This document shows, in pieces, positions 24,296 to 64,000 of a stretch of 64,000 nt of DNA; the first letter of the stretch is position 1, and every line of letters starts with the position of its first letter. The notes beneath the pieces are model-generated. The model did not search any database. It was not told where the DNA came from and saw only the letters and a program-made list of their open reading frames with translations. The DNA comes from Chara braunii (taxonomy: Eukaryota > Plantae > Charophyceae). The stretch is taken from positions 3,121,986-3,185,985 of the forward strand of contig BFEA01000020.1 of assembly GCA_003427395.1 (NCBI GenBank). The letters run 5' to 3'. A program made the translations under genes and the position numbers.

Positions 24296-24319
24296 CTGCA
24301 TATTAGAACAAAGTCAGAA

Positions 24320-26089: not shown

Positions 26090-26525
26090 TGGAACTTCTA
26101 CCGCCGGTAACCTTGCGTTGCCGCCGTAGAATTTTCACAGCCCTTCCGCACCACCGCTGGTAAGACCGGAGTCACCGCCGAAAAATTTAGGCATCTCTTT
26201 CGCACCACCGCTGATAAAACCGTAGTCGCCGCCGTAGAAATTTTGCAGCACTTCAGTACCACTGCAGTAAAACTTGTGCCGCCACTGCAGAAATTCGGCA
26301 GCACTTCGGCACCACCGCAGTAAAAACTTGTGCCGCCGCCGCAGAAGTTTTGCAGCACTTCGGTACCACCGCAGTAAAACTTCTGCCGCCGCTGTAGAAA
26401 TTCGGCAACACTTCGGCACCACCGCAGTAAAAACTTGTGCCACCGCCGCAGAAGTTCGGCATCACTTCGGCACCACCGCAGTAAAAACCAGGACTGCCGC
26501 TGTAAAATTCCGGCAGCACTTCCCT
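26090..26525 (+). repeat. ~53-54-bp minisatellite (about 8 copies, two related half-units)
   Basis: CACTTCGGCACCACCGCAGTAAAAACTTGTGCCGCCGCCGCAGAA.TT..GCAG at ~26249, 26303, 26356, 26410, 26463, with more diverged copies upstream. Confidence 0.92.
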
Positions 26526-27926: not shown

Positions 27927-27996
27927 TGTAGGTAGGTAGGTAGGTAGGTAGGTAGTCTTTTTCTCCCTCTCTCTCTCTCTCCCTCTCTCTCTCTCT
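27927..27996 (+). repeat. (GTAG)n followed by (CT)n microsatellites
   Basis: Direct observation, just upstream of the hammerhead. Confidence 0.9.
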
Positions 27997-28048
27997 GTCA
28001 CGCGCGCCCGTACCTAGACGTTATTAGCGTTGGGTTCAGGTGCAATGG

Positions 28049-37800: not shown

Positions 37801-38100
37801 CACTACCAGAATAATAAGTTGTGTGCGAAGGAATCGAGAGCAGAAGGAGAACGAAAAGCAAAGGGGGAAAAGGTTATAACTCACTCATTTCTCGACAGAA
37901 TCGAGTATGGTAAAAGGCTAGACGGGGGTTTTGGGACATGGCGAAGAGATTGGCAGTACCGGATTTCGATTTTGGGCAGCAATTTGGCTAGTGTGAACAC
38001 AGAAGGTTAACGACACCTATTTTTTTCATTATTCTAGGAACACTCGGTTGACAATCCTGATTTCTACGAGTTCAGACCAATGTTTTCACTAGCATTCTTG
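34871..38100 (+). repeat. LTR (U3 part), same superfamily as the other two giant LTRs; 3' end not found
   Basis: Starts TGTAGGCGTGAATACCCTTACAAGGGTAT versus TGTCGGTGCGAATACCCTGACAAGGGTAT (minus strand from 52509); GTGTG.GCG...AGTTC..GACGCGCGTG is shared between 35036-35075 and the reverse complement of 52322-52365. Confidence 0.75.
35780..37290. pseudogene. Mosaic of degenerate LSU (25S/28S) rRNA fragments in both orientations
   Basis: Sense: CCCGTCTTGGAACGAGGACC (cf. CCCGTCTTGAAACACGGACC), ACCCGAAAGATGGTGAACT, GGGTATAGAGCGGAAGACTACTCGAGCCATTTAGT. Antisense: CCACTTCAGTTTTCAGAAGTTCCCATTTGAATCTTTGCTGCCACCACCAAGATCTGCACCG at ~36093, related copies at ~36612 and ~37070. Confidence 0.85.
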
Positions 38101-38149
38101 AAAAGTTTTAAGATTTACATTGTTGGTATGGTGCCCCGTTTACGGAGAG

Positions 38150-41070
38150 GGGAGGAGGACGGAATGGGCAATTTCAAACCTTCACACATTTCACCAGTTC
38201 AGTCTGTTCTCAATCTTCACTACCGTCGAAGCAAGGAAGGGGGGAAGGATGAAAAAAACAATTTCATGCCTTTACCGATTTCACCACTTCAGTTCCTTCA
38301 CAGCCTTCACTACCGTCCAAGAAACAAGGGGAAAGGACGGAAGGGGCAATTTCAGACCTTCACGAATTTCACCACTTCAGTTTCTTCACATCTTTCACTA
38401 TCGTCTTTGTATGAGAGGGGGGGGGCGATTTCATGCCTTCACCGATTTCGCCACTTCAGTTCCTTCACAGTCTCCACTACCGTCCAAGCAAGAGGGGTGG
38501 AGGATGGAAGGGGGAATTCCATGCCTTCACCGATTTCACCACTTCAGTTCCTTCACAATCTTCACTACCGTCTAAGCAACAAGGGGGGGAACGGAAGGGG
38601 CAATTTCAGGCCTTCACAAATTTCACCACTTCAGTTCATTCACAATCTTCACTACCGTCCAAACAAGGGGGGTGGAAGATGAAAGGGGCAATTTGAGGCC
38701 TTCACGGATTTCACCACTTCAGTTCCTTCATAATCTTCACGATCGTCCAAACAACAGAGGGGGGGGAAGGGACGGAAGGGACAATTTCATGCCTTCACAA
38801 ATTTTGCCACTTAAGTTCGTTCACAATTTTCACTACCGTCCAAGCAAGGGGGGTGGATGACGGAATGGGAAATTTCAGGTCTTCACAAATTTCACCACTT
38901 CAGTTCATTCACAATCTTCACTACCGTCAAAGCAAGCGGGGTGAAGGATAGAAGGGGCAATTTTATGCCTTCACCGATTTCACCACTTCAGTTCCTTCTC
39001 AACTTTCATTATCGTCTATGTAGGAGGGGGGGGGGNNNNNNNNNNNNNNNNNNNNNNNNNTTCATGCCTTCACCGATTTCACCACTCCAGTTCCTTCACA
39101 ACCTTCACTACTGTCTAAGCAATAGGGAGGAAGAACGGAAGGGGCAATTTCAGGTCTTTACAAATTTTACCACTTCAGTTCGTTCACAATCTTCACTACC
39201 GTTCAAGCCAGGGGGGTGGAGGATGGAAGGGAATATTTCAGGCCTTCACAAATTTCACCACTTCAGTTCATTCACAGTCTTCACCACCGCCCAAGCAAGG
39301 GGGGTGGAGGATGGAAGGGGCAATTTCATGCCTTCACTGATTTCACCACTTCAGTTCCTTCACAACCTTCACCACCGTTCAAGCAAAGTGGTGAAATTCG
39401 TGAAGGTCAGAAATTTGTGAAGGCCTGAAATTACCCTTTCCGTCCTCCCCCCCACTTGCTTGGACAGTAGTGAAGGTTGTGAATGAACTGAAGCGGTGAA
39501 ATCAATGAAGGCATGAAATTGCCCCTTCCTTCCTCCTCCTGTTGCTTGGACGGTAGTGAAGGTTGTGGAGGAACAGAAGTGGTGAAATCCGTGAAGGCCT
39601 GAAATTACCCCTTTCATCCTTCACCCCCCTTGTTTGGACGGTAGTGAAGATTGTGAATGACTTGAAGTGGTGAAATTTGTGAAGGCCTGAAATTGCCCCT
39701 TCCATCCCCCCCCCTTTTGCTTAGAACGTAGTGAAGGTTGAGAAGGAACTGAAGTGGTAAAATCGGTGAAGGCATGAAATTGGCCCTTCCGTCCACCCCC
39801 CCTCTATTACTTGGATGATAGTGAAGGTTGTGAAGGAACTGAAGTGGTGAAATCCGTGGAGGCCTGAAATTGCCCCTTCCATCCTCCACCCCCTTGCTTG
39901 GACGGTAGTGAAGATTGTGAATGAACTGAAGTGATGAAATTTTTGAAGGTCCGAAATTGCCCTTTCCGTCCCCCTCCCCTGTTGCTCAAACGGTAGTAAA
40001 AGTTGTGAAGAAACTGAAGTGGTGAAATCAGTGAAGGTATGAAATTGTTTCTTCCATCCTCCACCCCCCTTGCTTGGACGGTAGTGAAGACTGTGAATGA
40101 ACTGAAGTGGTGAAATTTGTGAAGGCGTGAAATGTTCTCTTTCATCCTCCACCCCCTTGCTTGGACGGTAGTGAAGATTGTGAACGAACTGAAGTGGTGA
40201 AACTTATGAAGGCCTGAAATTGCCCCTCTGTCCTTCCCCCCTGTTGCTTGGACAATGGTGAAGGTTGTGAAGAAACTGAAGTGGTGAAATCGGTGAAGGC
40301 ATGAATTTGTCCCCCCCCTCTTCCCTCCTGCATGGACGATAGTGAAAGATGTAAAGGAACTGTAGTGGTGAAATCGGTGAAGGCATGAAATTGTTCGTTT
40401 CATCCTTCATTTCCCTTGCTTGGACGGTAGTGAAGATTGTGAACGAACTGAAGTGGTGAAATTTGTGAAGGCTTGAAATTGCCCCTTCCAGACTTCACCC
40501 CCTTTGCTTGGACGGTAGTGAAGATTGTAAACACACTGAAGTGGTGAAAGTAGTGAAGGTCTGAAATAGCCCCTCGCCTCTCCTTTCTCTTGGTTTGGAC
40601 GATGGTGAAATATGTGAAAGTACTGAAGTGGTGAAATTAGTGAAGGTCTGAAATTGCGCCTCGGACCTTCTTTCTCTTGGATTGCACGATGGTGAAAGAT
40701 GTGAACGTACTGAAGTGGTGAAAATAGTGAAGGTCTGTAATTGTCCCTCGGACTTCCTTTCTCTTGGTTTGTACGATGGTGAAAGATGTGAACGTACTGA
40801 AGTGGTGAAAGTAGTGAAGGCCTGTAAGTTGCCTCGCCTAGGTGAAATTAGTGAAGTCTTGAAATTGCCCCCTCCTTCCTCTCGAGACCCTGAAAGTTGT
40901 GAAAAATGTAAAGTGGTGAAATTGGTGTAGGTCCCTCCCCAAAATTGCCTCGTCTAGGTGAAATTAGTGAAGTCCTGAAATTGCCCCCTTCCTCCCCTTG
41001 AGACCCTGAAAGCTGTGAAAAAAGTGAAGTGGTGAAATTAGTGTAGGTCCCTCTCCTAAAATGCCTCGCC
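38150..41070. repeat. ~88-bp satellite with an internal orientation switch at ~39386
   Basis: GGGGCAATTTCAGGCCTTCACAAATTTCACCACTTCAGTTCATTCACAATCTTCACTACCGTCCAAGCAAGGGGG on + from 38150 to 39385, reverse complement from 39386 to 41070. Confidence 0.95.
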
Positions 41071-41250
41071 TAGATGCATTTAAACTACTGAACAACACAA
41101 CCTCACAACCCCCATTCATTATTGCAGCTTCCTTTTTCATCATGAAGAACACATCCCCCACCCTGAATTCAGGCCAAACAAAACACAACAAAATTCTCAC
41201 TTCACATTTTTCATCCTTGAAATTTCAGGTAGGTGATAACCACTTGTGCG

Positions 41251-44200
41251 ATGCATCTGCGTTCCACAAGCCTCCCGCGTCTCACATTGTCACCACGTTC
41301 AGCCGCGGCAAGTCCTGTACCCACCGTAGCGTCCTGTTTGACTTAATAAAGCAAAACCAAGGAGACACGTACGATCCGTCGGAATAGCTAGGAACCTGAG
41401 TACGCATCTTGCCATGTAGATAATCCACCACCATCTTCTCCTCATAAGGATTCGGATATCGCGCGCCCCTTAGATTCCACGGCTCGTGTGGGACCGTGTG
41501 GATCCGAATCATCGGAATTTTGTCCACATCCAGCCTCCCATGTTGATCATCATTAAAGGCGTATGCGCGATGCCTCTTCTGCATCAATCCCACCATGAAG
41601 GCCTTCTCTTGGGGTGAAAGGAAACCCGGTTCTCCAACTATCAACTTCCCTTCATGCTCATCGTTGATATGGCATGAACCATTCCACACCTGTTCTCACA
41701 TACGCCGTATCAATCCTCGTTCCCGCTCGTAGTATGCCTCCTCGTCTTCAGTAACGAGTACGGGAACTGAATGTCACTTTTTATCTACCGTCTTGTACCG
41801 CCTTTGGGAGCCCTGCTTAAGCCGTCCACTAAAAAAAGCCGGCTTGTTGTTTGTGCTTGCGCCATCGCAGAACCTCCTCTTCCACCGGGGAGTCGATAGA
41901 TCAATTTCACTTTCCCTACCTGAGGATCTTCTATGATTTGCTCCCTAAGTGCCTTGATTGCCTCCGGATCCGCCATTTCATGTGCCGCGACTATCTCCAT
42001 TGCCTTGTTTACGTCTGTGAGGCTTAGCGACAACACCTCTATTCCTCCTTCCTCCTCGGACTCTTCCCAAAGCCTCCGCCGCTCATTCTCCGATTCCTCA
42101 AGGGTGAATGAGCCGGGATTAGGCCTATTCCTCTCGCTCCCTGGACCTGTGTTCCGGCAGGTGATAACTTCATAGTTCCCACACGCCGGATCACTCATGT
42201 GCAGTATCATCATTCCATCGTGCTTATTGAAGATCAAAGTCTCCGTCCTGCACAGGAACGATCTTCCCGGGAGGATAGGGTGATCCACGTCCGGCATGAC
42301 GAAGAAGCAAGTTCTCACCCGTACCTTACCAATTTCCATGATCACATTGGATGCCGTACCACAAAAAATTGCCTTGCAGTTAACTCCATGCAGTACACCA
42401 TGGTCCGCGCGATCAATCTCCAATCCCAGCATAAGGGCATCCCTTTCCCTGATAATATTCATCTCAGCACATGTGTCCACCATTGCAACACACTTCTTCT
42501 CTTTGACCACTAAATCCACCAACTCGCATGTCGCGCACTTCCAGTCCATCCTTGTTTCGGCTTCAGTCCATCCTACCTCCCTTTGTAGGATCGTACTCAG
42601 ATGGATGTTGGGCACTAACCTCCGGGATAACCGTCCCTTCAAACCATCTCGGAGTCTCGGGGCGGACGCCAGGATATCCTTCCGGTTCATGAGGTCGTTA
42701 TGACCTTCAAGGAGCCTTTCCACCATTCTTTCTACATCAAAGCCTTCTTCTAGCCTGACTGCATACTTCTTTTTCTTAGGTACGCTTTCATGCTGGCTTG
42801 GCTCGGCTTCCTCCTGGATCCCTCTATTCTTAGCCCTTAATTCCGTTCGCCGATCCTCCTCCTGTCGGAGTCTCTCGTCCTCCGCGTCATCATCCTCCTC
42901 TTCCTCGGAACCTCCACCACTTATTTCCTACGCTCGGGCTCAGGTCCCTTTCGAAGAGGTGCCTGACTCGGCGCTTGACTAGTGCCAGCCTTACTTTGGC
43001 TCCTGGTTTGCGCCACCTGTGGTGCCCGCCCATGCGAGGTGGGTGGCCTGAACGTCATCCCCGACCTAGGGCCCGACCCTACCGTCGCGACCCCAAAATA
43101 ACCTTGCTACCCTGATGCTGATCCAGACCCAGATTCGTAAAGGAAGACTCTAGGGAGGTTGGCCTTCCATGCCTGGGCCTCCTCACACAACTCCTTTAGC
43201 CTTTGCTGGTACCTCCCCACCTTTCTCAGCAGGTCCTCCATTTTCTCCAGGATTGTCGTGACCGACTCTTCTACCTCCCCTTAGTCCTCGTCATCCGACT
43301 CAACGATTATTGATTCTTCCTTTATTGTCCCAACCTTTAATCGCTGGTTTACCTCCTCATCCTCCCCCACGATCTCTTCGACTCTCATGGGCGGGTCCTG
43401 TCTTTCTTGCCATAACCTAAACATCGCCGGGGGCGCCGACCCTGCCGTTGCTCGCCTAATGGCTTCCTGTCTGACTCCACTTGGAGTCTTTGGGTCGATA
43501 TACTTCTCAAATTTATCATATATGTCCCCATCCATGTTTGTGGAGATTAAACCAGAGAGCTCATCGCCCCGCCGCTGCTGGCAAAATCATATAGTGTGGC
43601 CCGTATTACCACAATACCAACACAAAGCATTTCGCCAATCAAAACAGGGCCGCCTGTACCCTTGGCCCCCTTCCTGGCTGCCTTGGCCACCTTGATTTAG
43701 CCCTCCTTGGCCATTCCATCCACCACCACGTCCTCTGTCGTTCCTTCCTTGGCTGCCACCTCCTCGACCTCCCTGTCCTCGACCACCATTGCCTTGCCAA
43801 CCTTGTCCTTGACCTCCTCCTCCTGCCACGCTAGCCTGCGAAGCTTGCTGCGAGGTGGGAGGCTGGGCCGTGAACTGACCTTGGGTCGCCGGAAAACTTG
43901 GTGACCCTGCACTCGCCAATGGGCCCGAATATGGGACCACCTGTCCTAAGGGAGCTTGGCCTCCTCCACACGAGTTGTAGTGATTACATCCAAGCCAAGG
44001 TGCCATTTGACAACAAGGTATCCAATGTCCACATGATGATGGCGGCCTCATTCGCGAAGGCCCTGTCGACACATGTGCAGTTGTGTCGGCGGCCGATGGC
44101 GCAACAATTGCCTATGGGATCTGTCCCTTTCCAGAGCCTTGTCCTCCGAGCAGCAAGTTACGCTGCTTGCGCTGGGCTTTGGTGAGAACTTGGAACCCCG

Positions 44201-44996
44201 TCTCCTCCTCACCGTAGTCTTCTTGCTTGGTCTCTTCGTCCCCTACCTCCTTTCCCCGACTTTGGACTACGGTTACCACCTTTCTCTGTACCTCAGCGTC
44301 ATTGCCATAGCCTAGCTCCGCAAGCACGTCCGTGACAATCCTTTTCACTCCCGGGGTTCCAGATGCAGAAGCGTCCCTCTCCTTTTTCTTCCTCCTCTGC
44401 AAGCGCATCTGACACTGCTCTACCTGGTCCAGACTCTCATCTTCTACTCCCTTATCAATGGTGGCCCAGGTGAGTTTTGCACTACCCCCTCCATGGCTCG
44501 TCAATTCTGCAGCCTCTGAAGCAGTGAGCAACCCCCAAAAAATGGTGCACTGCGCTTCTTCTGAGATCCCATGAACCTTCCTTGCCTTTTTCTTAAATTC
44601 TTGAAAAAACGTCCCTACCGTAGTGAAGTCGTCCTTGTTCATGGCTTCGAGATCTGCGGTGGTCAGCAACCCATCGCCCAGCCTATACTTGCGCTGCATG
44701 CCATCTCTAAACCTCGCCCAACTGTCATTGGCCGTATTTATGACCTTCTCGACTTCTTGATGATGACCATGAAGTACGTACTTCAGAATGCGCTGAAATT
44801 TTATCGCATCTGACAACCCCACCAACGCTTGCTCCACCAAATCCAACCAATCTGAAACCCTTTCTCCGCTGAAGTGGAAGGCATCAACCTTCAGGATATT
44901 GCTTGGCGTTTTCTCATGTCTATCAATGGCTGCAATGAGGTCCTCAAGTGTCAGGACCTTTCTTGTACCATCCACTAAGCCACCAGACTCCGGCAT
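41251..44996 (-). pseudogene. gag-pol: gag-pro-RT(N-terminal) polyprotein of element B, with stops and frameshifts
   Basis: Gag FHFSGERVSDWLDLVE; RGG/Q-rich region; CWYCGNTGHTI*FC knuckle; protease AMVDTCAEMNII...ILPGRSFL; RT IHTVPHEPW...SPWFCFIKSNRTLRWVQDL; homology ends near 41251. Confidence 0.93.
41830..41836 (-). promoter_or_regulatory. Predicted -1 frameshift heptamer T_TTT_TTA between protease and RT
   Basis: The protease frame reads CTT TTT TTA and stops 15 codons later; the -1 frame reads FSGRLKQGSQRRYKTVDKK towards RT. Confidence 0.65.
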
Positions 44997-45311
44997 CTTG
45001 ACCGACGCCTCTTGTCAACTTCCTGTTAAGAGAAAGGCAAAATACTCACCTATTCAGCACCATTCTCTGTAAAGATTTATGTCGTATACCCTACCTAGTT
45101 TCCCCACGATGTCTACCTAACTAGGTATGGCTGCTCCTCATAGCTTTTCTAGGTTAGGCAGGTAACCAACCAACATAGGGGATGCTAAGTTTTTCTTATT
45201 TGTACTCAATATACAGACCAACCCAGACTCTCATTTTCTTCCTATGCCTATTTCCTTTTCAGTCTCATACCCGGATGTCGTTCCACCAGGGACAACGGTA
45301 GGCTTCCGTTA

Positions 45312-45329
45312 TCCCCGGCAACGGCGCCA
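45312..45329 (-). promoter_or_regulatory. Primer-binding site (tRNA-Asp type, as in Athila-like Gypsy elements)
   Basis: Minus strand TGGCGCCGTTGCCGGGGA, 2 nt after the LTR end ...CGCTCGACA. Confidence 0.88.
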
Positions 45330-47584
45330 CCTGTCGAGCGCATCCCTCCGACACGGCAAAGGGCAGCGAGGGACCCTTTCGGCCGCGTCACTCAGGAGTT
45401 TGTCTATTTCCTCGTTGCGAATATACACATAGAGCTTCCATAAGCCGCTCTGGCCGAGTGCGCCAGCCATACCTCNCGCGAGCCCCTACGACAGGATAGG
45501 GCCTACGCGAGGCACAACTTGCCTCCACCTTACGGGAGTTGTCACCTCCCTTCGGTGGGCGTATCCCCGCCGAGCTACCAGTCCACATTACGAAAGCTAA
45601 TCAATTGCAATCGCAGAGGTGGACCAGCCGATGACGTTTCTCGTTCGCTGTAGCATAGGGGGTACGAGTGGTATTACGCCTCTATCGAACCCGTACGAGA
45701 ACCGACATCTTGGGGGCTAAGGTCCCAAGCGCGACTCGTCGTCGGTCGACTAGGACGTATCCCACTCACCATGCGTACACCACACTACGAAAAAAAAATA
45801 AAACACACACACACACATACATCAAACAATGCGACAACACTCCTAGTCCCTTAGTAGCCATCCCATAACTCTACGATGCTTAAATCAGATAGGTGTCACG
45901 CGCGAGACTTAGTATAAGATCGCGTGGACGCAGGACTAACTCATATCGATTCGCAACGTAAGCGTACACAAGCGGTCGCAATGATGGTGTACTATATAGT
46001 ACCCATACTTATGCGGTCCTCGTTAATCTCGAGGGTCGCATTCAACACTCAAGTGTCGGCTGACACGCGCCTTGAGGGTTAATCTCTCGACACTGGACAA
46101 CCTCCAAGTGCGGTTGAAAACCACACCCTCTTCTACACCCTGCGGAGAGTGGGTGGTACACAGGTTCATACCAGTGGTGGAAATCGTGTCTTATGGCCCT
46201 GGAGACCAACTCCTTCCCCTAGGGCCTGGAAACGAGTCAAGGGGTTTGACTTTGACGGTTACCACGGACTACAACGTGCAGCTATGACAACTCCGAAAAA
46301 CAAAAATACGTCGAAGGCCTCCCTATCCCAAAATCACAACCTTGGGTAACCTTTTCGGTTGGCACCAACGACCTATACTGACTCTGGACACACATGTACA
46401 CATACGAATCACTTGATCTCATAACTCTAAACACTAGGACGGGAGAACATCGTGCGCAAGACTTTGATATAAAGTTGTGCGGTTGCAAGCCCTTCCTACA
46501 TCAACTGGCGATGCTAGTCATACGCTGCAATCGCAGTTTCGGCCTCGCGATATTGAATGGCTGAAGGAATATATCGTGAGGGGTTACCCTTCACGATATT
46601 GAACGGCCGAAGGACATGTCGTTCAGACCTCGCAATATTTCTGGCCTCAGGGTTGGGTGTCTCGACGGGCAGGGCACTTAGGTCCTGTGTGGAGGGGTAG
46701 TCCCTCCTTGCAGGGCTAAGCCATGGGGCGTCCTAGACAAGGACCTCGAATTTCAGGCCCAGGACTAAATGTCCGACTATATCAACTCAAAATGCAAAAG
46801 GAGTCTCGCTTTTTCTCTCGAAGTCAGAGGCCGGTAGGCCCCTACGTGTAGCCATAAATAGGCGGCGCCGTCACTCATAATATGTATAAATATGGGGTTG
46901 TTTATATGGGACGATCGTTTCTCATAGTCACAGTGGGGCCCCTTGTAACCATACTTGTATGTTGTCGCAGGCAGTTACATCCAAACATCCAACTCACCAC
47001 ACATATCTGCAATCACATGAAAAATCCCACGAAGGATTTCACACGCTACACGGGGTTAACTTCAACCCATCTCTGTACTCACACCCTTTGCTTTAACCAA
47101 TCAAGCCTCACTCTTGTGCAACTCCTCAAAATAAAATACTCAGTACTTTTCTTTAAATGGTCATTCAAGTAAAGTCCGGGCGAAAACATAACAAAACAGT
47201 TCAAATCACAAGGCTAAAACCTTTAGGTTGAGTGACAAGAGTGGATTGGAGTTGAGTAAAACGACGAATCGGTAACCAACATGTTATCAGTGATAACAGA
47301 AGGTGATCCTCAAGGGATCAACCTGGATCTAGTCCAAGTCCTGAACCCAATCGATTCAGTTGGCCTGTAACACAAGACAGGTCAACGCTCAAGACAAAAC
47401 TTATAAGTTCATGGAGAATAATCTCCACATCACCATCTCACTCAATTCATCTTATTTAAGTAGGCCTAAGTCTACCTCTAGGCAAGTGCCGAAAGAAAGG
47501 TAGAATCATGACAGAATCTTCCCTATCCAGGGTGGATTACCAGAATCGCCACCTATCAAAATATAATATAACTCCCCTTAAACT

Positions 47585-47890
47585 AAGAAAATTCCGGCAG
47601 CGCTTGCCGTAGGAAAAATGTATGTTCAGAATCTATATCAGCCTGAATATGAAAATAGAAATAGTCTTTGACTTTTTTAAGTCAAATTTTGTTGAACTTC
47701 CTTATTTAGCAAAAATTTGGCAGCACTCCCTTTAGAAAAGGAGACTTTCCAGATTTTTACTAAGCCATGTATGAAATTTAGACAAGTTGAACCTTGAAAA
47801 AACGAAATTTGACTAACTCTCTAGCTTTGCAGAAATTTCGGCAGCGCTTCCGTAGGGAAAGTGGCTTACCAAAATGTATACGAGCCCAAG
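47585..47890 (+). repeat. Three diverged ~122-bp tandem units
   Basis: AAATT..GGCAGC.CT..C.TAG.AAA at ~47589, 47712, 47833. Confidence 0.65.
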
Positions 47891-48173
47891 TATAATAAAT
47901 AATATCAGAAAATACAAAAATTGGTCTAAGTAAAAAACTAACTCAGAAAATGCAGAAATTGAAACTAACTCTTATTGCTCTAGCACGTGGCGAGTCACTA
48001 AAGCAACTACCTATCAACCTGAAACTCAAACTAAGTAGTAATCTCCCCCAGCCACATGCAGGCTAAACCACAAAGGTCAGTACTCTCACAATTCTCAAGG
48101 TTAGAACTTGTCAAACAATAGTTCATAGTCTTTCATTGATTTAACCCCTTATACCCTGCTTACATAGGGCACT

Positions 48174-48993
48174 GAGCTTGGTCATTCGTCTTAGAAATAA
48201 TGCTAACTCTCTGCCTTACTTATACACGAACAGGTTGCACAACTACTTCTCTCTTCATTGGGCACACGACTAAGCCATTCGTCTTAGAAACGATGCTTAG
48301 TCGCCTTGATTTGTTTAAATAGTCAAGTTATATATCTCTCTCCGAACTTAATCTTCAAAAGTGAGCGTAAGACTGAGCCATTCGTCTTAGAAACAATGGT
48401 CCGCCGGACCAAGTTACCTTCAGTTATAGCTCTTAGTTATACTCTCTTGATTTGTGGTAAGGCTATAGTCAGACCATTCATCTTAGAAACAATGTCTGGC
48501 TAGCCTTGTTCTCATAAACATACAGATATAGAGTTATAAAAAAATCTTATTTTTTTGTTCTCATTATAATCCTGTGGCCTCAAACTTAGACCATTCATCT
48601 TAGAAACAATGCCTAGTCTTTGACCTTAACCTCCGTCTGAATTAAACAATCAAAAGAATTGAGCCATTCATCTTAGAAATAATGCTCAACCTATTTTCTC
48701 AGCAAAAAAAAAAAACAGATTACTCTGGGTCAAAAATCCAGAGACTGTTCAGAAACCACCCAAAATAAACAGTGACCAGACCATTCATCTTAGAAACAAT
48801 GTCCGATCCTCAAATTTTGCACAGTCAATACCCCAAAGAAACAACAACCAGACCATTCATCTTAGAAACAATGCCTGGTTAAATTAAATAAACACAGCGA
48901 CCAAGCCATTCATCTTAGAAATAATGCTTGGTCCTTCAGAAAATAGAACAAAACATAGCAGTCAGACCATTCATCTTAGAAAGAATGCCTGAC
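48174..48993 (-). ncRNA. Array of 10 predicted RNA hairpins with conserved 20-nt core, variable covarying stems and unrelated spacers
   Basis: Core CATTC(A/G)TCTTAGAAA(C/T)AATG at 48183, 48276, 48379, 48475, 48592, 48665, 48782, 48854, 48907, 48968; flanking arms differ per copy but are mostly self-complementary. Confidence 0.8.
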
Positions 48994-51900
48994 CCTATAA
49001 GACTCATTCAAGTGCAAGCAAAACTGGCTTCCTCCCAGCCTTCCCCGTGATGCAACCCCTTTTCACAATCTGTTTTTTAGACAAACAACAAAAGTTGAAA
49101 CTGAAAAATTGTGCATGCATTTTTTTACTTAAGTCTGGGTTATGTCCTGAAAGTCAAACTAAAGTCAAAGTAGGGGTGCACTCAATACACTCAGTCAGAT
49201 ATATAGAAAGATGTATAGGTAGGGGTTATAACTGGGTTTATAAGGGGAAACAATGGTTACCTCTGAGTTCCCTGCCTCCAGAACTCCTCCTGAGTTCCGA
49301 CAGAGCTCCCGCAATCGGTGGGTTGACTCCCCACAGAGTCTTGACGAGGACCTACGGGTTGCAATCCCGTCTGCCGCCTTCCTCTCAGAACCAATAGACT
49401 AGACTTAGAGTAAGAAGGGTAGAAGAAGAAGATTAAGACTATCAGATACAAGGAGGGTGCTCTCAGACTCGCGTGAGAGGGCCTGGATATCTCTGGTCGC
49501 CTGAGGGCCCCGCAATGGTGGCCAAACGGCAACAACTTGGTCAAACCTGATTCAACCCGCTGCAGCCAACTCTCTGGCGACTTCCCAGTTCGCAGCGATA
49601 ACTTCCTTGCAATTCAACCACCCTTCGCTACACCACGTCTTCACCCTGCAACAACAAGAGTAATCACCCTCCAGAGAGTTGGCACCATCAGCAGCAACCG
49701 CAGGGCATGAGGATGCCGACCCTGCAAACCGCCGATCTTTGAAGATTGCTAACCTTGCAGACTGCCACCAAGTCTAGGTATGTACCCCTTTTCTACTCCC
49801 CTTTTCTGTTGTTGTACTGTTCGCAGGTACACGTCTCCTCTCCGCAGCGCGGCTATGGTGGACTTCCTTTGCGATGACGCTCCTCCACTCCCACGACCTG
49901 CGGTGCGTGGGATAGCGGGTACCAGCTCTGGGACCAGTACAATCAGACTCCCTTTTTCACTCGCTTCATGGGCATGCGAACAAGAGATTCAGCAAACTGG
50001 CAACTAGCGACTAGCCTCAGAGCTCGAAAAATAACAACTTGGAACATAGTTCGTATACAAGTCCCCATCAGACGGCTGCGGCGCACAACGCCCGCAACCC
50101 CCAACTCGACACTATACTCAACTTACTGTTTGCACACACACCCACACCCTGCACAATCTTTACAACTACGGCTCCCTCTAGCTCTATACTATGGCTATTC
50201 TCTTCTCCCCGCCCACTTTCTCGTCGGGCATCTGTAGACCAATACTACGTGGTCCGACAATTGTCGTTCACATCGCTGTAACAACGCTTCTGTATGGCTT
50301 ATGCAGGAATGAATCATTACCTCGGCGCTGCACCTTGATTTATACTTTTGCTCCGTATTGGTCTGCCCTTCCCATCGACCCTGGGTGCTCACGGTCCCGT
50401 ATGGTACTTGCTTGCCTGGACCTAGACAGGCTGGGACTGGGTCCCACCGACTCAGCACAGGTGGACTTCACCATTTGCCAGTAAGTGTGAAACTCGAAAC
50501 GGGACGAGGATGTATCTTCCGCTAGAATATGAAAAGATACATCACCACGCACCTGTTACTCTTTATGACTGTCACGCAGTCTCATCTCTCTTCTACACTA
50601 AATCTACTAACTCTTTACTCAAACTAACCACATAACCTGACTCGCCCGGCCTAGAAACCTCAATCTAATGCCCTAGATCGTCAAAAATCGGACGGAAAGT
50701 GCGCGAATTACTATCACTTCGCTCTCGCTCACCTTCCCTTCCGACACTCTCCGCGCACTCCATCTTTCTACGAACTTTTTCTACACTAACTTTCTCTTAA
50801 TTATGAGTTTAGAAATGAGGTCGCCATGATCCAAAAGTCCCGTTCTAAGCCCTCCCCTGCCAAAATCCATTCACAGCCGCATGAGATATGCTCGCTCCTT
50901 TCTCCTTATCCTCCACCATCTCCATCTCCGAGCAACTCTATCCTCATCTAGCTCCAAATCTACTAACCTTTTACTAAATCTAACACCACCATCGGACTCG
51001 GCCTAGCAATAACCTCCTAAAACAACTCTTCGTTCACCCGTTTTCATCAAGAAATGGGTGAGCTAGACGATTCCTTGTTCTACTATAGCCACAACCTTCT
51101 CACGTTCGACTACCGACGCACCTTGCACAGGCGCCTGTACGGGTTCACTCCTTCTGTTTCCACCAGTCTCGTCGACCTCACCTTCTCTGTTAAACTCCGC
51201 CCCTCTGTACTAGCTCGTTTCCCCTCTCTAGTCCTTTACACCTCCTTACCCGCAGCGCTCCGCTTCGCCTTTCCCTTCATGCCAACTCTTTCTATTCCGA
51301 TCCACTTCTTTCCCTCTCGTCTACCCGCTTCCCGCCTCACTCCAATTTTCTTGTCACACCTGCGCTTCGTTCTTCGCAACGCCCGACCATGATAGCCCCA
51401 CAACGCCCTGTACCCGACCCTTTCAATACTACGTGGTCCGACAACATCAAAATATCAAAAAAGAAAACAACCGACTGTCGGATCTCTCTGTATCATTCCA
51501 AGGCAGTGCCCCGTGGTACTCTCAAATGCTAACTGGCCTTTACACCGGGCATATTGAACAGGGAATAAACACCACTCCCTGGCATGCCCGACTATCCTGG
51601 TCTCCCTGCCTATCGTGATGCCCTTTGCCTGGGCCCAGACCGCGGCCTGCATCCCAAAAATCTATAGGTGTACCCACCGAGTCATGATCATGGACCCTCG
51701 GCCCGGGCTCGAAACCGGTACCAGCCCAAATGGAATCAAAATAATGTAAAATAAAATAAAAATAAATAAAAGTCGAAAAAGGAGGTTCTAATAGGACAAG
51801 CCGACTGGGACAGGAGGAGGGACCTTGCGGCACTCCCCTGATCCCGCCAAACGGGCCCGCAATCGGTTTTCCCCAGCAAAACTAAGAAGGATAGTCCCGC

Positions 51901-53290: not shown

Positions 53291-53815
53291 TGTCTCACGC
53301 TAGTGTTCCCGTTGCCGTCCGGTAGAAGGGGTCTGCCGGCACGCCGTCCGAACCCTATGTCTCACGCCGCGTCTGTCACCCGCAGGAGGGTCGGTCGGGG
53401 CTCCTGTAACCTGCACAAAACATGTCAGTCCACATCAACAAATACAAGTACCGTAGCCAACCGTGACCAATGCGAGAAGGAACTCATGAGACACTATCTG
53501 GCAGAAATAATAAAGGTAGTTGCATTCAATCCAAAACAATGGGGTGTGAGACACTCGTTCCGGCCTCAGCCGTACACCTCGCTCCAATGTCTGAAAAATC
53601 CGTCTGAGTCCCTACAGACCTAGCCATCAAACGCCGCCTAATCCTCCTCCCAATTGGGTGTCGCCTATATCGTGCCCGTCGATCCCAAGGGACCGTGCTA
53701 GAGCTCTCAGTGTCTGACGTAGCCTCCCTCGCCCATCGAGGCCAAAGCTCCAAATCCACCGTGACCATAGTTCGGGTGTACCACTTCGGAAAGCCTGCTT
53801 CATGAAAGTACCCGC

Positions 53816-56800
53816 TCAAGGAGTCCCCATAAGATAACGCCCTATCTTATGATATTTGCCAATGTATAGATTTTCAAAAAACAAGGAAGTTTCTCCTGCA
53901 GCGGACTCTATTTTTAAGGAGCTTATGTCCATTTGTAAAAAATTGTCAATACCACGAGGCGACCCTAGATCTCCCTCTTCTAGAGGGATTCGCCAGAGAC
54001 CATCAGCAACTGAGTTCTTAGCTCCGGTTATTCGCTCTACTACATAGTCAAACATCCTTATATGCATGAGCCATCTGGTGACCGTTGGATTTGTTAATGA
54101 GAAGTCTTTTTGTAATTTTGCTGCCACTGCCGTCGGATCGACCCGCAGTACGAACCTTCGCCCGTAAATATAATGTCGGAAAATATTTAAACAATGTAAG
54201 ACTCCTATAACTTCTTTCTTAAATTGTGAGTAGTTCCTTTCGGTGGTGTTTAAGGTCTTACTCTCGAATCTGAGAGACCTCTTATTGCCATCTTGATCCT
54301 TTTGAGCCAAGACTCCACCAACAGAGGTAGGTTCCGCGTCCGTACATACGACGAATGACCGATTTTTCTCGTTTTCGAAGTAAGGCACTCCAAGGACTTG
54401 ACCTCCTTCCTTAAACTCATCTTTTAACGTTTTTATTGTATCCTCTTGTTCACTCGTCTATTGTCATTTTACTCCCTTGCGCAAGAGCTTTCGTAGGGGT
54501 TCGGCCTTTGCAGCATAGCCTTTTATGAAATTCCTCCAAAATCCGACCACTCTTAGAAACTGACGTATGTCAGTAATATGTCTGAGGGGGGTTGGCCATT
54601 TCATAAGTTTTTCTAACTTTGCCGGATCTGGGCGTCTGCCATCCTTGTCGCAGATGTAACCTAATATCTTTTTGAAGGATACCGCCCATCTGTTTTTTTT
54701 TCCACTGACCGTAAGGTTTGCATCTTCTAACTTCACTAGTATTTTTTTTATATCCTCTGCGTGGGTGGCTACGAATTTCCTCACTCTAGGTGTCACTTCT
54801 GTCTCATCTTTCTTGTATGGTCCTTTGATCAGGAAGTCATCAAGGAAAACTTCTACGAGGTTTGGTATGAGCTCCCCTAGAACGGCGACCATCGCTCTTT
54901 GAAAGACTGCGACACCGTTAGTCCAACCCATCGGCACCACCATCATTTGAACTAAGCCTAACGGTGTATGCATTGCAGTTAGATGTCGGTCTCTGTAGTC
55001 TAGCGGTATCTCATCGTATCCCGAAAAAAAGCCGCAGACTGAGTAAATTGAACGTCCTGCTGAGCCTTCAGATAGGAGATCCGCGTTTGGGATGGACCGA
55101 CGTCCCTCACTGTGACCTTATTTGTCTTTTGCAAGTCTTGTATCCATCGTAGTTTCCCATTTGATTTCCTTATAAAGAACCACCGATTGGCATAGGCGCT
55201 CTTACAGGGTTCCGCTACGAATGTCCTTATCTTCTCTTTGAGGAAGTCCACTATCATTTCTTTTTCTTTTTGCGCACACTTCCATCCCGCATCGTTTCAT
55301 GGAGTGTGCGGAACCGTATAGATTCTCGTCGGTTTAACATATCGTGGATCTATTCGCCCTCTCTCTGCGTCACAAAAGGCTACTGCCTTGTCGCATGCTC
55401 TTAATGTTTTTATTATGAGTTCTTTTTCGTTTTCCGTTATGTTTTCGTCGCCTATATCCATTTCATTTAACCTGACTTCAGTGATTCTCTGCCCTTCAGT
55501 GACCTTTCGTTCCCTGATCATCTGAGTAATTTCTTCTTTAGTGATCCCCATTTCCCCGGTCCTATCACGGTTGACTGCGACTGGCTTGACTTTTTGGGCT
55601 ACAGTTTTGTATCTCTTTCCTCCGCCGTGTGGAGGAATTCCTCCGAAAAAAAAAGGTTTATACATCCACCGAATTCCTTGTCGTCAGACTTTTTCTCATA
55701 GATTGTTCTGTCCACCACGTACTTAGTTTCGAGGTCCTCGACGTCAATCTTTTTTCCTCTCACTTTATGCGGTCCTAGTGTAAGGTCTTCAGATATCATT
55801 TGGCAACTTCTTGTGTTCAGTCATCCTCTATTTTGCAATGAAATCTTGTGACGGTTGTCAAATTCGTTCACGGTCTTCATGGTAAGCCTGCTACCTTGAG
55901 GTCCGTCTATGGTAACTGTCTGACTTCCGTCCCGCTTATTTTCGGTGGTGGCGTTGACCCGTGTCAGCCATGTTATTCCGAGAATTATTTGTGATGAGCA
56001 GTTCTCAACTGTAAAGACGGGCATAGTGACCTCAACTCCCGCGGCTACAATCTTGGTTTTGTGGCATACTCCGAGCGCAGGTTGCTTGAGTTTGTTAGCG
56101 GATATCGTAGTCATAGCTACACTTCTGTCTACTTCTAAGCCAAGGTTTCTAGCCATCTTGTCCTCACATACAGTGGACTCGGACCCGACGTCGACTATAG
56201 CCTCCATCCCTATGCCATTGACTGTGACATTGAGCTTTCCACTGACAAGGACGTAAAAGTAGTTGCTTCTACCTGAAGGTTTTGTACTTGTTTGTCTCCT
56301 TCGGTTAGTGCCGTTAGGACTGAGGTTTTCACCTCCTCCTTCTGTTGTCCAGAATTTGTGTCTTATAGCGGTACTTTAGTTTTCTTCATCATGCCTATTA
56401 ATTCATCCCTCACCGGGCCACAGCCTGCTATAAATTCCTTGAGGGTGATAGGGATTAGCATATCCATGACCCTTCTTAAAGGTTCTCGTAAATCGACTTC
56501 GTCTAGCGAGCTTTTAAGGTGAAACTTCTTGGCTGCTCGTTTTCTAGGGGATTGTGGTGACTTGGGCGACTCAATTTGGTCGTCTGTCATAGGTTGATCT
56601 TGATCCTCTTTCTTTGTGTCGCTTGACTCGCCGACCTCGTCGATGCCTTGGGTGCGTACGTAGACTTCTGCGTTATTTTTCGTCTCTTCAAACTTAATGG
56701 ATGAAATTCTTATGCCTGGGCTTTCTATTTATTCGTCGAAATCATCCTCGAAGGTTACTCGGGAGAGCTTGGCAGGTAATTGATCCTGAGATTGCTTGCC

Positions 56801-58261
56801 TTTTGCTTCATTCATCCTTCTCCTGCGGATATCCACATTAATCTACATCGAGGGCAGGAAGGGTACCGGTTTGCCTTCATTAGCCCAGATGACGTATTTT
56901 CGATCGTCGAGTTCAATGATGCCCTCTTTTAGTGCGTCTAACATTGTTTGGCAATCTCTTTTGCGGTGGTCTTCGTCTCCGCAGTATATACATGCATTAT
57001 CATTCCACGTTCGCTTTGGGCTATGGTCGGTTTTGTCGCGCGTGGTCCGGATAGGAGTTTCCTCCTTTCTCTGGTTATTACTTTGCAATCTCTCTACTGC
57101 CACTTTTAGTACTTCTATCTGTCTTGCCATCTCCTATTCTCGTCTGTCTGGTCTTTTTGCTTCTATCTCATCTTTTGGCTTCCACCTGTTATCTTTTGTA
57201 TTTGACCACTTGGAGGTTTCTCATTCCGCGTCGTTTCTTTTCCAATCACTCCTGTTTCCTTTCCTCCATTCGCCCTCGTTTTTTGTTGTGTCCGCTCTTC
57301 TAGGTGAGCTCGCGTAGGTGTCCCTTCCTTCGGTCCTGGGCCTCCTGTCCTCGAATTGCGATTTTCCTCCTCCTTTTTATGTAGTTACGCCTTTTCCTAG
57401 GTTGTCAAGAACCCTCGCGAGGTGTTCTTTCGCGCTTTGGTCTTCGGTGTCATGGGTTAAAGCTTTGACTTCGCTGAACGTTACCTTAGAGGGAAGATCC
57501 CTCATAATCTTGTCTCGCTTTTCTCGAGACAGAAATCCTAGGAATATTCCGCACCTTTCTATTTCGCCCATAAATCCACCTTCTACTAGAGGGTTCGAAG
57601 CCTTCCCATATCTCCTTGCGAACGCTACTAGACTCTCGTCCTCCTGTTTTTTCATTTCCTTTAGATCTTCTATTGAATAAGATGTTTCATCCCATGCGAA
57701 GATTCTTGTAATCCTTTTTCTGAATATTAGCCAACGCCAACTGTCCGGAATGACTTCTCTGACTTCGCGATCTATCTTGGGAGCTGTGTGGTGGAGTAGA
57801 TTTATAATCATCTCCTGATCGCTCCATTCCGCTCTCATCCCCAGTACTTCCCAGTCGTCTAAAAATTATGAAACATTCTTTCTTGTGAAGATTGTTTGGA
57901 TTCCGGACAGTGTCTGTAATTCGAAAGTTTGTGCTCCCAGGAAGGGGGATACGTAGGAGCCTGGTGCATATGCCATTTTGTAAGGCTGACTCGGGGTTTC
58001 CCTATATGGTTCCCTTGTACCGGGATCCGAGAATCGGGCTACTCTATTCCTGATTAGAACGTCTTTCCTCCACCCTTCGCTCTTGGAAGTGCGTTCCTCA
58101 AGTTCTGTGACTGTAGTTTCTAACTCTTTTAGGGTCTTCCTCAATTTTTCGGCGTCCTTTGTGATATCAGTTGTCATTTTCCTAATTGGGGTACTCGTCC
58201 TTGATTCTTGTGTTTTGACTTCGCTGCCTATCGAGGATAGATAGACTCCTTCCGCATCCAT
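53816..58261 (-). pseudogene. gag-pol: gag-pol of element C (capsid, CCHC knuckle, protease, RT, RNase H), degenerate
   Basis: MKKQEDESLVAFARRY; CIYCGDEDHRKRDC; AIVDVGSEST...ILGITWL; RWFFIRKSNGKLRWIQDL; PMGWTNG...VFLDD; VCTDAEPTSVGGVLAQ...ERNYSQFKKE...ADGL. Confidence 0.94.
55617..55653 (-). promoter_or_regulatory. Predicted -1 frameshift signal: T_TTT_TTT plus downstream stem-loop
   Basis: The protease frame reads CTT TTT TTT TCG and stops at 55599; the -1 frame reads FFFGGIPPHGGGKRYKTV into RT; stem TTCCTCC-ACACGGC-GGAGGAA lies 9 nt downstream. Confidence 0.65.
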
Positions 58262-61200
58262 ATTTTTCCTTCACTCTTCCAGAAGTTGATCAAAGGCGAC
58301 TTTAACTCTTTCTGTCGATTCTTCTAGTAGCTCTTGTAATGTGTTGAAGTTCTACTTTTTTCCTTCAGCTTTGACGACTAAGGCGGTAGCTAAAGCGGTT
58401 TGTAGGTAGCGTGAGTTTGCCTCCAACTTATTTAAGGATATTTCATCAACTATTACGTTGGCGAGTTCTCCTAGAGCTCGAGCATCCTCTTTCAATTTTT
58501 CTACAGATGTGGCTATCGTCTCTCTCCAGGTGTGTGGGATTGATTGTCCGCTTGGGTTGACAGTGAGGATTTGTATTCTTACGAGAAAGAGCTCTCCTGC
58601 AGCTTTCCAGACGACACACTTCCTGACTTCTATTACTGCTTTTGTGGCGCACTCGGTTTCCTCTTCTTGGCTTAATTGCTCATTATGTACTGCTTCCACT
58701 AGGACTCGTACTAAGGAGCCTTCTCTTTCTGCTCTGCCTGAGATACTAAATTTTTGCCTTCTAGGTTCGACATTAGTCATTTCTTTGTTTGTTAGTGTCT
58801 TCTCGGTCTTGCTTCAGGAGTCTGACAATGAAGTCATTTCGCCATCTTATAATGTTCTCTCTTTCCTCTCTATAGATTGCGACAAGACGTTCGATGTTGT
58901 TTTCCAGTTTATTTAAGCCAGCTTCATCCATAGAGCCACGTCATTCGTGGTATTTTTCTAGTGACTTTTCAACCTTTCTCTCAGTTGGGTCTAAGTATAT
59001 TTCTAGGATGGCATTAATTTTCGGATGTCTTCGCCTTACACGTGTGTTCGTGCTTCTCGAATTGTCTCTTCCTTCTCTATCTCGCACTTCATCCATCCCT
59101 CGGCCCAGATCATCACATTGTAGGCTCTGCGATTCTCTGTTCTAACTTGTGCTAGTGCCCTTGGTCTTTCGCGCTGTATAGCTTCTTGTGTCAATCGTCG
59201 GCAATCTAATGTGTCTAATGCTCTAGAGGTTCGGATCCGAATAATCGAAGTTATAGTCCCTGCGAAGCATACCCGATTCACTTCCTCTTCATCAGTTACT
59301 GCTCCCGGCATTTTTGAGTTCGTCTTGTGCCCCCTTTACTTTCCATACGAGGTCTATTACGGCCGACCATTCATTGTTAGCGAGCGTAAGCCCTTCAACT
59401 GGTGGCGACGATATTCCAATGAAAGGCCTAACGTAGGTACTCCATGAGAAATTCGCCCTTAATTGTTGGAGTATTCTCTTCTCGTCATGCACTATGTTCG
59501 AGGCCCGTTGCCAACAACGACCTTTTTCGTCTTCCTTAAACCTATGTTGCGGCACGTATATTCCCACATCTTACTCATTAAGGTTGATGAAGTAGTAGGT
59601 GATGACATGCATACCATCAATCCCCCATCCTTGACTCCTTAGGCCTTCGTATCTCACGATCTCATATGGGATCACTGCTCTCTTCGATATAGAGTTAAGG
59701 GAACGGACCAACTTTCTCGACTCCCCCTCCTCTAGCCTCCTACATCTCCTCATCCTTGGTCAACTCCCTTAGCATGGCTCTTAATCCTGCTCTTGATCTT
59801 GGAAGCTTTCTCTCTCTTAGTCTCCCTTGCACTAATCCTTCATTGTCCTCATGATTCTAATCAATCTTCCTCTGTCATCTCTTATCTTGTGCTCACTTTC
59901 TATTCCGAGCAGGCATGTGTCAAGGTAGAGTTTCCCTTCTTGATCTCGTAGGCAAGAGGCTCCTCTCTTAATCCCTATCAACCCTGTTTCATCAGATCGG
60001 ACTCTCCTACAGATTGTCGTGCCTAGAGTACGCAAGTCCTCTTGGGTCCATTCCGTCAAAAGTATGAGCAGCTCTTGGGACCTCCACCTATCATGGTCAC
60101 GCTGTCTTAGTTCACTTGTTATATCCCCCCCAGGCTGGCTATTCTCGTTCCCTCTGGCCATTCGGTTTATGGTGCCGGTTTATGAAATCAATTATTAGAC
60201 CTCGACCGATGCCTATCAACGCTCCGTAAGGAATCCGCGGTCTAGGCAAGTCTTCAAAGACCCTGATTTCAGTACTCCAAGCGACTTCTTTCTTCAAGGA
60301 AAGGAGCTTATCCTTCTCGACCTCTACCACTTCTCTCGCTCTTTGCCAGCAACGTCCGTACACTAAATCTTCCGATCTCTCCGTTGGTAAGTAAATGCCT
60401 ACGTCTCTTACCTCAGTCCCTAGGAAGCGCGCAGTCATAACATAGAGTCGGCTTAGTTCCCATGCGCTGTCGACCATCTCCTAGGGTACTCAAGAATGCA
60501 CACACCGCATGAAACTTCTCTTGCAGCGGTCGGTTCCCAACGATGATTTTGTTATCCCACTCTTCAAGTTTCTCTGTAGACTTCTTATGCCTTACTCGTT
60601 CATGACCCAACATTGTTTTGGCCACACCCGCCTAACACAACCGGGCTCGTTCCCTGACCAGTCCCTAGTCTTACCTCAGTCTCTAGTCGTTCCACCTTCA
60701 GTAGATAACTGATCTCGGTTTGGTTGGTAATTATTCTCAAAGCCGACTCCCTCATACGATCCAAATAAGGTTGTATGAGTTCAAGCTCTTCAAACCCAAA
60801 GAGATCTATATCAGGAATTCAGAGGGTGCCCTCAACTTTTACCATTCTCTCTTCCGCGATAGCCCTGAAGGAGAATTGTTCCCTAAAACCCGGCATCCTT
60901 ACTGACCCCAACTCCTTGCTTTGAGCGCCATATTAATTAAAGGCTCTCAGTTCTTGTCGTCAGTAAAACTGTCAGATAGACTAGGTTCTGGAACCCCATA
61001 GTATAGGACCGGTAATGAGCCACTAATTACTTTCTCCCCTCTCCTTTCTAATTCCTTGCTTTCCTGGCTGATGACGCTTTTAATCCAGTTTCTAAGCGAC
61101 TCTCGATCAGTTCCCCTCTCTCTCAATAGAGGTATATATGGCCTAATGTCGTACTCCCCTGTATCAAGGTGTTTTACNACAAGGACATAGGCTTTCCCAG

Positions 61201-63203: not shown

Positions 63204-64000
63204 TCCTAAGCAAAATAAAAAACGGTTCTCTCTCAGTATGTCACTCCCTGTGCCACTCTTAGACTATTGAGCTCACAGACCCCCACGACAGGCCTCCTCT
63301 GATCACCCCTGTATCCCTTCAAGACGTCAACAGGCCTAGAAGAGAACCGCCCTGTAGCGTATCTCTCCCTACCCTCATGTCAAGAAGGAGGTCGGATCAA
63401 TGTGCCATCGTCGCTGGCCTACCTTCCCTGTCGCGACCTGAGCACAAGCCGGCCAACTCATGTGCTCTAGGGTGGACCGAAGTCACACGCGGATAGGGAG
63501 GCGGTGTCTCACTCGTGCATCCTCACTCCTATCCATGCCTCTACTCGGCCCACCTCAGGCATGGTCTCACATCCCGACTCGTGCTATGAATCAATCCCCC
63601 CCGCTATCCATCAGAATCGACTAGCCCCTGCCCAACTCCTTGCAAATCCGGGGCGCTTCTCCCCTCCCCTTCAGTCCCTTCACGTCGTCCCCTGCTCACG
63701 GTTCTCTCTCTTAGATTCAATATCTGGGTGGACTGACCAAAGGGTAGGGAAAATCAGAATGACGTCCCTCGATCACAAGAAAGGCAATAGGAATAAAACG
63801 CATGAAAGACGAGAAGAAAGCAGGAATCAGCGAAACCACGAAATGCAGAAATCACAATCTCACCGGTGAACGTCGATCATAGGTCGATGGGGGTGTCGTC
63901 TGCCCGCTCGTGCCCGTACTTATGCATTCGGACCACTGGCCAACTGCTTAGCCCCCTCCGTCTGCCCTGTCCCAATCAAATCCCTGTCCTGATCCTCTCA

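Follow-up and report, generated by a model that had tools for sequence, protein, structure and literature searches.

We analysed a 64,000-nt stretch of Chara braunii DNA, here called the window, and found a broken LTR retrotransposon, element A, on its minus strand. The element comprises the following features:

45332-49526, minus strand: 5′ LTR of element A, ending ...CGACA at 45332; at least 4.2 kb long, reaching at least 49526
45312-45329, minus strand: primer-binding site (PBS), TGGCGCCGTTGCCGGGGA, preceded by ...CGACA GG
41785-45014, minus strand: interrupted gag and protease, assigned by Pfam; the element ends at a satellite near 41250

Pfam recognised a retrotransposon Gag (E 0.002) and an aspartyl protease (E 5e-5) in element A. 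Together with the LTR end and the PBS, these matches suggest an LTR retrotransposon of Ty3/gypsy type. Element A stops after the protease; its listed relatives bear Pfam labels for RT, RNase H and integrase. By eye, Gag shows an RGG-rich part and one zinc-knuckle-like stretch. The Gag frame (44112-45014, minus strand) is 100% identical to Chara braunii CBR_g21809 over 78% of the query, and every one of the 120 relatives listed, from a total of 174, comes from Chara braunii. Neither the conserved LTR patterns nor the Gag alignment gave a match in prokaryote genomes or viral contigs.

The PBS may resemble the Athila type. A search for tRNA genes in the window found none. The earlier note had spoken of a giant LTR. 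The 3′ end and the PBS are indeed clear and the length is at least 4.2 kb; no second copy of this LTR was found within the window. TGTCGGACCACGTAGTATTG occurs twice on the minus strand, at 51443 and 50259. Its TGTCG is the inverse of the CGACA end, so either site could be the 5′ end of the LTR.

The summed depth of the X1 DNA contigs was 1.9e3-4.5e5 over 45.3-49.5 kb versus 140-700 in gag, and locus-specific X1 contigs had a depth of about 10. This pile-up shows that the LTR is very repetitive, though it yields no copy number. X1 may underlie the assembly itself, and X2 belongs to the same study; neither can count as independent.

The window holds further repeats. A satellite of about 90 nt forms arrays at 1-6200 (plus strand) and, in opposite orientation, at 14000-19900, roughly 8 kb apart. 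An 88-nt satellite at 38100-40900 consists of two inverted arms around 39400, and element A ends next to it, at about 41250. A different, decayed gypsy-type element occupies 53800-63300 on the minus strand, with Pfam matches to protease, RT and RNase H and several long frames of no assigned family upstream of its gag (60947-63263). A short motif beginning TGTATC(T)TT recurs at 50504-50547, 20795-20960 and 27870-27900, with inverted ends around 20795-20960, and is probably the terminus of a MITE; many RNA reads match this piece alone. A related LTR end without a PBS lies at 22546.

Ten hairpins on the element-sense strand

The earlier note had reported a 20-nt core recurring tenfold in the LTR at irregular spacing of 53-117 nt, and the core is indeed present at ten coordinates. 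It reads CATTCATCTTAGAAACAATG, and its ten copies in the window carry 0-2 mismatches each. They start on the plus strand at 48183, 48276, 48379, 48475, 48592, 48665, 48782, 48854, 48907 and 48968, giving core-to-core distances of 93, 103, 96, 117, 73, 117, 72, 53 and 61 nt. Outside the array, the best core-like matches in the window have 5 mismatches. On the minus strand, which is the element-sense strand, each copy is predicted to lie in a hairpin:

48953-48998, minus strand: hairpin 10 (first in the RNA), loop UAAGAU at 48978-48973; z -3.1
48892-48937, minus strand: hairpin 9, loop at 48917-48912; z -3.3
48839-48884, minus strand: hairpin 8, loop at 48864-48859; z -2.9
48767-48812, minus strand: hairpin 7, loop at 48792-48787; z -1.8 (plus strand +1.2)
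48650-48695, minus strand: hairpin 6, loop at 48675-48670; z -1.9
48577-48622, minus strand: hairpin 5, loop at 48602-48597; z -2.0 (plus strand +0.7)
48460-48505, minus strand: hairpin 4, loop at 48485-48480
48364-48409, minus strand: hairpin 3, loop UAAGAC at 48389-48384
48261-48306, minus strand: hairpin 2, loop at 48286-48281; z -4.5
48168-48213, minus strand: hairpin 1 (last in the RNA), loop at 48193-48188; decayed in this copy

Folded singly on the minus strand, 8/10 hairpins had z scores of -1.8 to -4.5. Copies 1 and 3 scored about -0.3, in agreement with the poor pairing first described for these two. The plus strand also folded well for 5/10 hairpins (z -1.8 or lower), and 100-nt sliding-window folding across the array was mostly unremarkable. 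All ten window loops, taken with the closing base, read CTAAGA. The 3-bp upper stem of the window hairpins is weak, with a closing-pair probability of 0.00-0.51 in a 1.3-kb fold.

We then asked how well the arms of each hairpin fit each other. The six arm pairs quoted in the earlier note were all found in the sequence. In an arm-swap test, the control that note had called for, own arms paired in 68/90 cells versus 59.7±3.1 with permuted arms (p=0.0028), and their energy was -133 versus -102±8 kcal/mol (p=2.5e-5). The lower stems are 7-10 bp long. Among 11 window-type hairpins (the ten of the window and one from L002, a related LTR described below), changes on both sides were seen at 8/9 lower-stem pairs. 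The number of lower-stem cells changed on both sides was 25, versus 11.8±3.3 in shuffled sets and far lower values in slid registers; units inside one array are related and two full-length LTR lineages were compared, so these counts represent non-independent events.

A scan for the core pattern gave 26 loci in metagenome contigs and one in viral contigs, all of them single matches. One metagenome contig, BFBZ01008522.1 (L002), bears a related LTR that is 79-80% identical to the window LTR over 49075-49526 and 48298-48512 (both array flanks). LTR flanks common with the window were found in L002 only, and the remaining 26 loci were taken as chance. The L002 cores mostly differ from those of the window (for example, CCCCA-TAAGTT-TGGGG and TTCTG-TAAGTT-CAGGG), but the loop is the same. 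The L002 minus strand has 11 TAAG[AT][TC] sites, ten of which fall inside its array, and at least 3 closing pairs are formed at 9/10 of these array sites (shuffle mean 0.06, maximum 2).

Over 19 hairpins of both lineages, TAAG is the sole invariant block. The upper stem changes while staying paired: C-G 11, A-U 6 and G-C 2 at the first pair under the loop, U-A 15, C-G 3 and A-U 1 at the second, and U-A 11 and C-G 8 at the third. The upper-stem covariation score was 0.76 versus 0.26 in shuffled sets and at most 0.33 in slid registers, in a set of related, hence non-independent, rows that omits L002:341 (C.C at the third pair) because the scan required 3 pairs. The earlier note had folded the core into a stem with a CUA triloop and wobbles. 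That fold is incompatible with L002: in the comparison, the UAAGAY hexaloop is closed by UUC/GAA and sits over an internal loop, which makes the hexaloop on a short stem, and not the 20-mer, the unit that is kept. As predicted from the two lineages, the conserved unit is a hexaloop UAAG(A/U)(U/C) on an upper stem of 3-7 bp, followed by an internal loop and the 7-10 bp lower stem. By eye, U.U and G.G oppositions are frequent in this internal loop.

Several single units fill in this picture. A loose-end consensus of X6 (60 reads, at 48171) has a further variant, TAAGTT closed by CCA/TGG. The L002 counterpart of hairpin 4 retains the lower stem, topped by a different upper part, and the counterpart of hairpin 2 (L002:20-50) has lost the loop part and retains a short stem, GACTAG/CTAGTC. 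A model built from the window-type hairpins recovered L002:202-250, on which it had not been trained, on the minus strand (E 0.017); it missed the upstream L002 units and gave no other window match below E 3. An RNAalifold consensus was left unused because a misplaced gap shifts its register. Rfam had no match to the array or to L002, and its three weak matches elsewhere in the window were far below gathering. We discarded two candidate classes. The loops UAAGAU, UAAGAC and UAAGUU are, on inspection, not palindromic, which does not suit a kissing-loop dimer initiation site, and a miRNA or hairpin-siRNA precursor needs a duplex of at least about 21 bp, far beyond the lower and 3-bp upper stems seen here.

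An excess of G-U over A-C oppositions on the minus strand had also been claimed. Within the helices, the element-sense strand of the window had 11 G-U to 4 A-C (p=0.12; 2/11 G-U are private changes), so the window alone does not bear the claim out. L002 had 16:2 (p=0.001), and with both lineages together the bias is clear (27:6, p=0.0003). A count of 43:5 was set aside, as it included internal-loop positions of the common core.

We compared the window with other genomic copies of the array, using the 40 of 460 copy-versus-copy differences that were listed. Five lay in cores, where the other copies carry the common core letter. Among the 14 non-core differences assessed for pairing, 8 lie in stems, and at 5/8 of these the other copies have a Watson-Crick pair, against a mismatch here at three (hairpins 1 and 3) and a G-U at two. 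The remaining three comprise a neutral change and two that disrupt the outermost pair of the other copies. Hairpin 3 has two stem positions unlike most genomic copies, both unpaired in the window copy. Other copies thus pair where the window copy is broken, which indicates that the window copy is decaying and that the family pairs better. DNA depth was higher on hairpins than on spacers; cores cross-map, so this depth is no measure of conservation.

Taken together, the upper-stem covariation in two LTR lineages, the excess of G-U (27) over A-C (6) and the broken stems that are paired in other copies support the selection on RNA structure proposed in the earlier note. As far as sequence comparison can tell, the array is very probably a selected structure of the element-sense RNA.

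Splice signals and transcripts around the array

The array lies between predicted splice signals:

49255-49430, minus strand: exon-like block, highly repeated and sense-transcribed, ending in a predicted donor; its upstream limit is approximate
48134-49255, minus strand: predicted long-range helix bracketing the array (49255-49234 with 48134-48156), starting 5 nt after the donor
45023-45037, minus strand: predicted splice acceptor (pyrimidine tract and CAG), about 27 nt before the Gag ATG

The predicted donor, GAG/GTAACC, falls at 49261/49260, and the array begins about 260 nt behind it. A sequence scan downstream of the donor found two acceptor-like sites, at 45785 and 45023. Over 49015-49415, sense versus opposite reads were 20.6 versus 1.4 in X5 and 46.4 versus 0.45 in X7, and X7 depth by strand at 49275-49321 was 179 versus 1. 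Both are poly(A) runs, and the sense call assumes the orientation usual in most stranded libraries. Almost all RNA reads were under 95% alike and so derive from other copies.

The X5 and X7 reads ceased to match at 49266-49268, adjoining the donor. There, RNA loose ends continue from AG into something other than GT in X5 (14 reads) and X7 (26 + 15 reads, with 30 more X7 reads ambiguous), whereas DNA contigs (83, 88) and one X6 group (69 reads) read AG/GTA. Agreement within the loose-end consensuses was 0.5-0.87, and DNA depth also drops at the donor. It is likely that the donor at 49260 is spliced in related copies. No 49261-45023 joint was among those listed, from a set with 624 more, and two RNA loose-end motifs matched nowhere in the window or L002.

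The array itself had few X5 and X7 reads, mainly sense with some opposite. In X6, the opposite strand dominated over 48852-48898 (66.9 versus 15.1), tracking the DNA profile. The bracketing helix had a pair probability of 0.98 for its two helices and ranked only second in a duplex scan; it gives a weak indication that the whole array is enclosed by one long-range pairing. Depending on where transcription starts, the array could alternatively be confined to the 3′ terminal part of the genomic RNA.

A distant LTR of the same clade occupies 22546-28000 on the minus strand (73% identity between 22702-22910 and 45444-45659). Its donor, at 27238, is likewise GAG/GTAAC; the sequence behind it folds strongly, and an acceptor immediately precedes an ATG. 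Very strong hairpins lie at 27000-27850, with z down to -6 on both strands; a search of 22546-28000 for UAAG hairpins found none. Two frames, 24833-24323 and 24313-24014, stand behind acceptor-like sites and have no Pfam hit, the first being also without a homologue. This LTR contains a 54-nt tandem repeat at 26100-26520, and the GCTGCCGAA-like motif of that repeat occurs three times in the LTR of element A (47590-47850).

Possible readers of the array

A fixed loop, free stems, a single favoured strand and ten copies suggest a multivalent docking site on RNA. We consider it fairly probable that the array is a protein-docking platform. The fuller proposal, a multivalent platform that marks unspliced element RNA, most likely for the element's own Gag, we also favour, if only mildly. 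That the docking protein is Gag specifically we put forward tentatively.

In this model, the hairpins would fold in vivo. The donor at 49260 would be joined to the acceptor at 45023, a splice that would remove the array together with the PBS and leave the array to unspliced RNA alone. A protein would read the loop and perhaps also the U.U/G.G-type internal loop beneath it. This reader would be the Gag nucleocapsid, acting in packaging, in preference to an export or intron-retention factor; with its zinc-knuckle-like and RGG-rich stretches, Gag is the most economical candidate. The uniform cores of each LTR lineage may arise by template switching or conversion between units.

Retroviral psi elements (HIV-1 SL1-SL3, the MoMLV GACG hairpin pair, RSV mu-psi) comprise 2-4 hairpins that differ from one another and mostly follow the PBS. 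The array resembles them in its purine-rich loops on hairpins, its place in the 5′ retroelement RNA near a donor and upstream of gag, and the zinc-knuckle-like and RGG-rich region of the Chara Gag. As in psi elements, hairpins with conserved loops are predicted on the genomic-sense RNA. Unlike them, the Chara array has ten like units over 820 nt, sits in the LTR upstream of the PBS and has homogenised cores. The RSV packaging signal lies upstream of the donor, according to PMC5035971; a position behind the donor is thus no rule for packaging signals.

The main rival to Gag as the reader is an export or splicing factor. Host factors might use the hairpins to control splicing, export or premature polyadenylation, with the loops in a row acting on U1 snRNP or an hnRNP as decoys or telescripting sites. 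We regard this as unlikely, though it has points in its favour. The loop is like positions +2 to +6 of a 5′ splice site, and in L002 3/10 loops read GTAAGT and 5/10 ATAAGT; the array also follows closely behind a donor, within the predicted bracketing helix. The ten window loops match just four consensus bases, however, with the -1 base paired, and the bracketing helix is the second best of the duplex scan. RRE and CTE are known elements for the export or retention of unspliced RNA. PMC12786077 and PMC10309623 report on export elements and on a Rev-like protein: the RTE of IAP, the MTE of MusD and the CERV-dependent export of Cer1. In the LTR of element A, a search for a Rev-like ORF yielded none, the frames between 45300 and 48200 being short, at 60-104 aa. 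The array is like these export and retention elements in being structured, in belonging to RNA that splicing is predicted to remove and in having a mismatch-rich internal loop below the apex. It differs in being a modular array in an LTR, theirs being single complex folds of internal regions.

Less probable still, the array could act at the DNA level, as sites for a transcription or anti-silencing factor or as single-stranded DNA hairpins during reverse transcription. The 20-nt core is nearly invariant in the LTR lineage of the window, the array sits in an LTR, and tandem protein-binding motifs occur in transposon non-coding DNA as the targets of VANC, which offer a precedent. A reader of duplex DNA, however, would preserve neither pairing amid letter changes nor a one-strand G-U bias, and TAAG alone is kept between lineages. 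As to single-stranded hairpins, minus-strand cDNA corresponds to the plus strand of the window, which is the disfavoured one. We judge action at the DNA level improbable.

Hairpin scaffolds and sponges offer another comparison. The GGA hairpins of CsrB/RsmZ, the Xist A-repeat and the tandem TAR of HIV-2/SIV likewise consist of repeated hairpins in which the loop word is fixed, the stems vary and the linkers are rich in U. The Chara array differs in loop, host and context, and it has no Rfam match. By analogy, the array may act like psi hairpins, export elements or CsrB/Xist-type repeats; we liken it to these classes and assign it to none.

Among plant Ty3/gypsy non-chromoviruses with large LTRs, Athila, Tat and Ogre share with element A an LTR of at least 4 kb, a TGG-type PBS, the gag-protease order and non-coding repeats, and in the available part of PMC6317226 their tandem repeats are not described as loop-conserved hairpin arrays. 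A GUAAG loop of rRNA, described in PMC6326782, is a different motif from the UAAG loop of the array. Our literature search found no description of such a hairpin array; supplements and the repeat annotation of the Chara genome paper were outside its scope.

On a more speculative reading, the array might be a lineage barcode. Each LTR lineage would homogenise its own version of the UAAG-loop hairpin over some ten units, in co-evolution with its Gag or with an accessory protein. Placed within an intron of the LTR, the array would restrict packaging or export to unspliced RNA. It would then belong to a recurring class, so far undescribed, of modular same-loop hairpin arrays in retrotransposons; we think this barcode reading doubtful as it stands. 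The array itself offers a small and modular candidate, being one 45-nt hairpin with an invariant loop word of four letters and natural variants in two lineages, and the many genomic copies provide material for covariation analysis. If a protein does read it, the array would amount to a natural counterpart of MS2 hairpin arrays, and it might account for the way in which lineages of the element recognise their own RNA.

Spacers between the hairpins

Outside the stems, the spacers are 16-80 nt long, U-rich and of low complexity, with the U-richness in the upstream half. The earlier note had called them unrelated, which holds at most in part: the upstream spacers are U-rich, and a distal spacer, which follows hairpin 4, can be aligned with the corresponding L002 spacer (p=0.003), an alignment that continues through the next spacer. 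The aligned distal spacers have diverged about as much as the flanks (about 80% identity). DNA-contig joints suggest that unit number and order vary between copies, a signal confounded by cross-mapping. These patterns fit inheritance with unit turnover and homogenisation, and not acquisition.

The likeness to a CRISPR array, from which the earlier note had started, is one of layout. Short near-identical repeats alternate with dissimilar spacers, and upstream units differ between LTR lineages while distal units are common to both. The differences are that the Chara array lies in a eukaryotic retrotransposon with irregular, inherited spacers and no cas genes, and that its variable arms are part of the hairpin. 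A search for Cas families found none in the 34 of 79 long frames scanned, and the host is a eukaryote.

The same layout could point to a processing substrate, in which a nuclease recognises the hairpins and frees the spacers as small RNAs. A candidate would be an RNase III with a preference for an AAGU-type loop. Distal units in common with L002, differing upstream units and DNA joints that hint at variable unit number or order (partly mapping ambiguity) would suit such a substrate. The irregular, low-complexity spacers do not, the distal ones being vertically inherited at about the divergence of the flanks. Nor do the stems, whose 7-10 bp below and 3 bp above the internal loop are too short for a Dicer-type duplex. 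A search of the spacers against 50,697 phage records gave no match. No read-end pile-ups were seen at the hairpins in the poly(A) libraries, which are blind to small RNAs. The CRISPR-like reading of the earlier note finds no support, and we think spacer release very improbable.

Least probable of all, and hard to credit, is a neutral by-product, a short inverted repeat amplified in tandem whose pairing stems from recent duplication or replication-slippage repair: tandem repeats are frequent in non-coding regions of large plant non-chromovirus elements (PMC6317226) and the window copy is clearly decaying, but every unit has its own matched arms, closing pairs are compensatory under a loop kept across lineages, wobbles are strand-biased and pairing letters prevail in the other copies.
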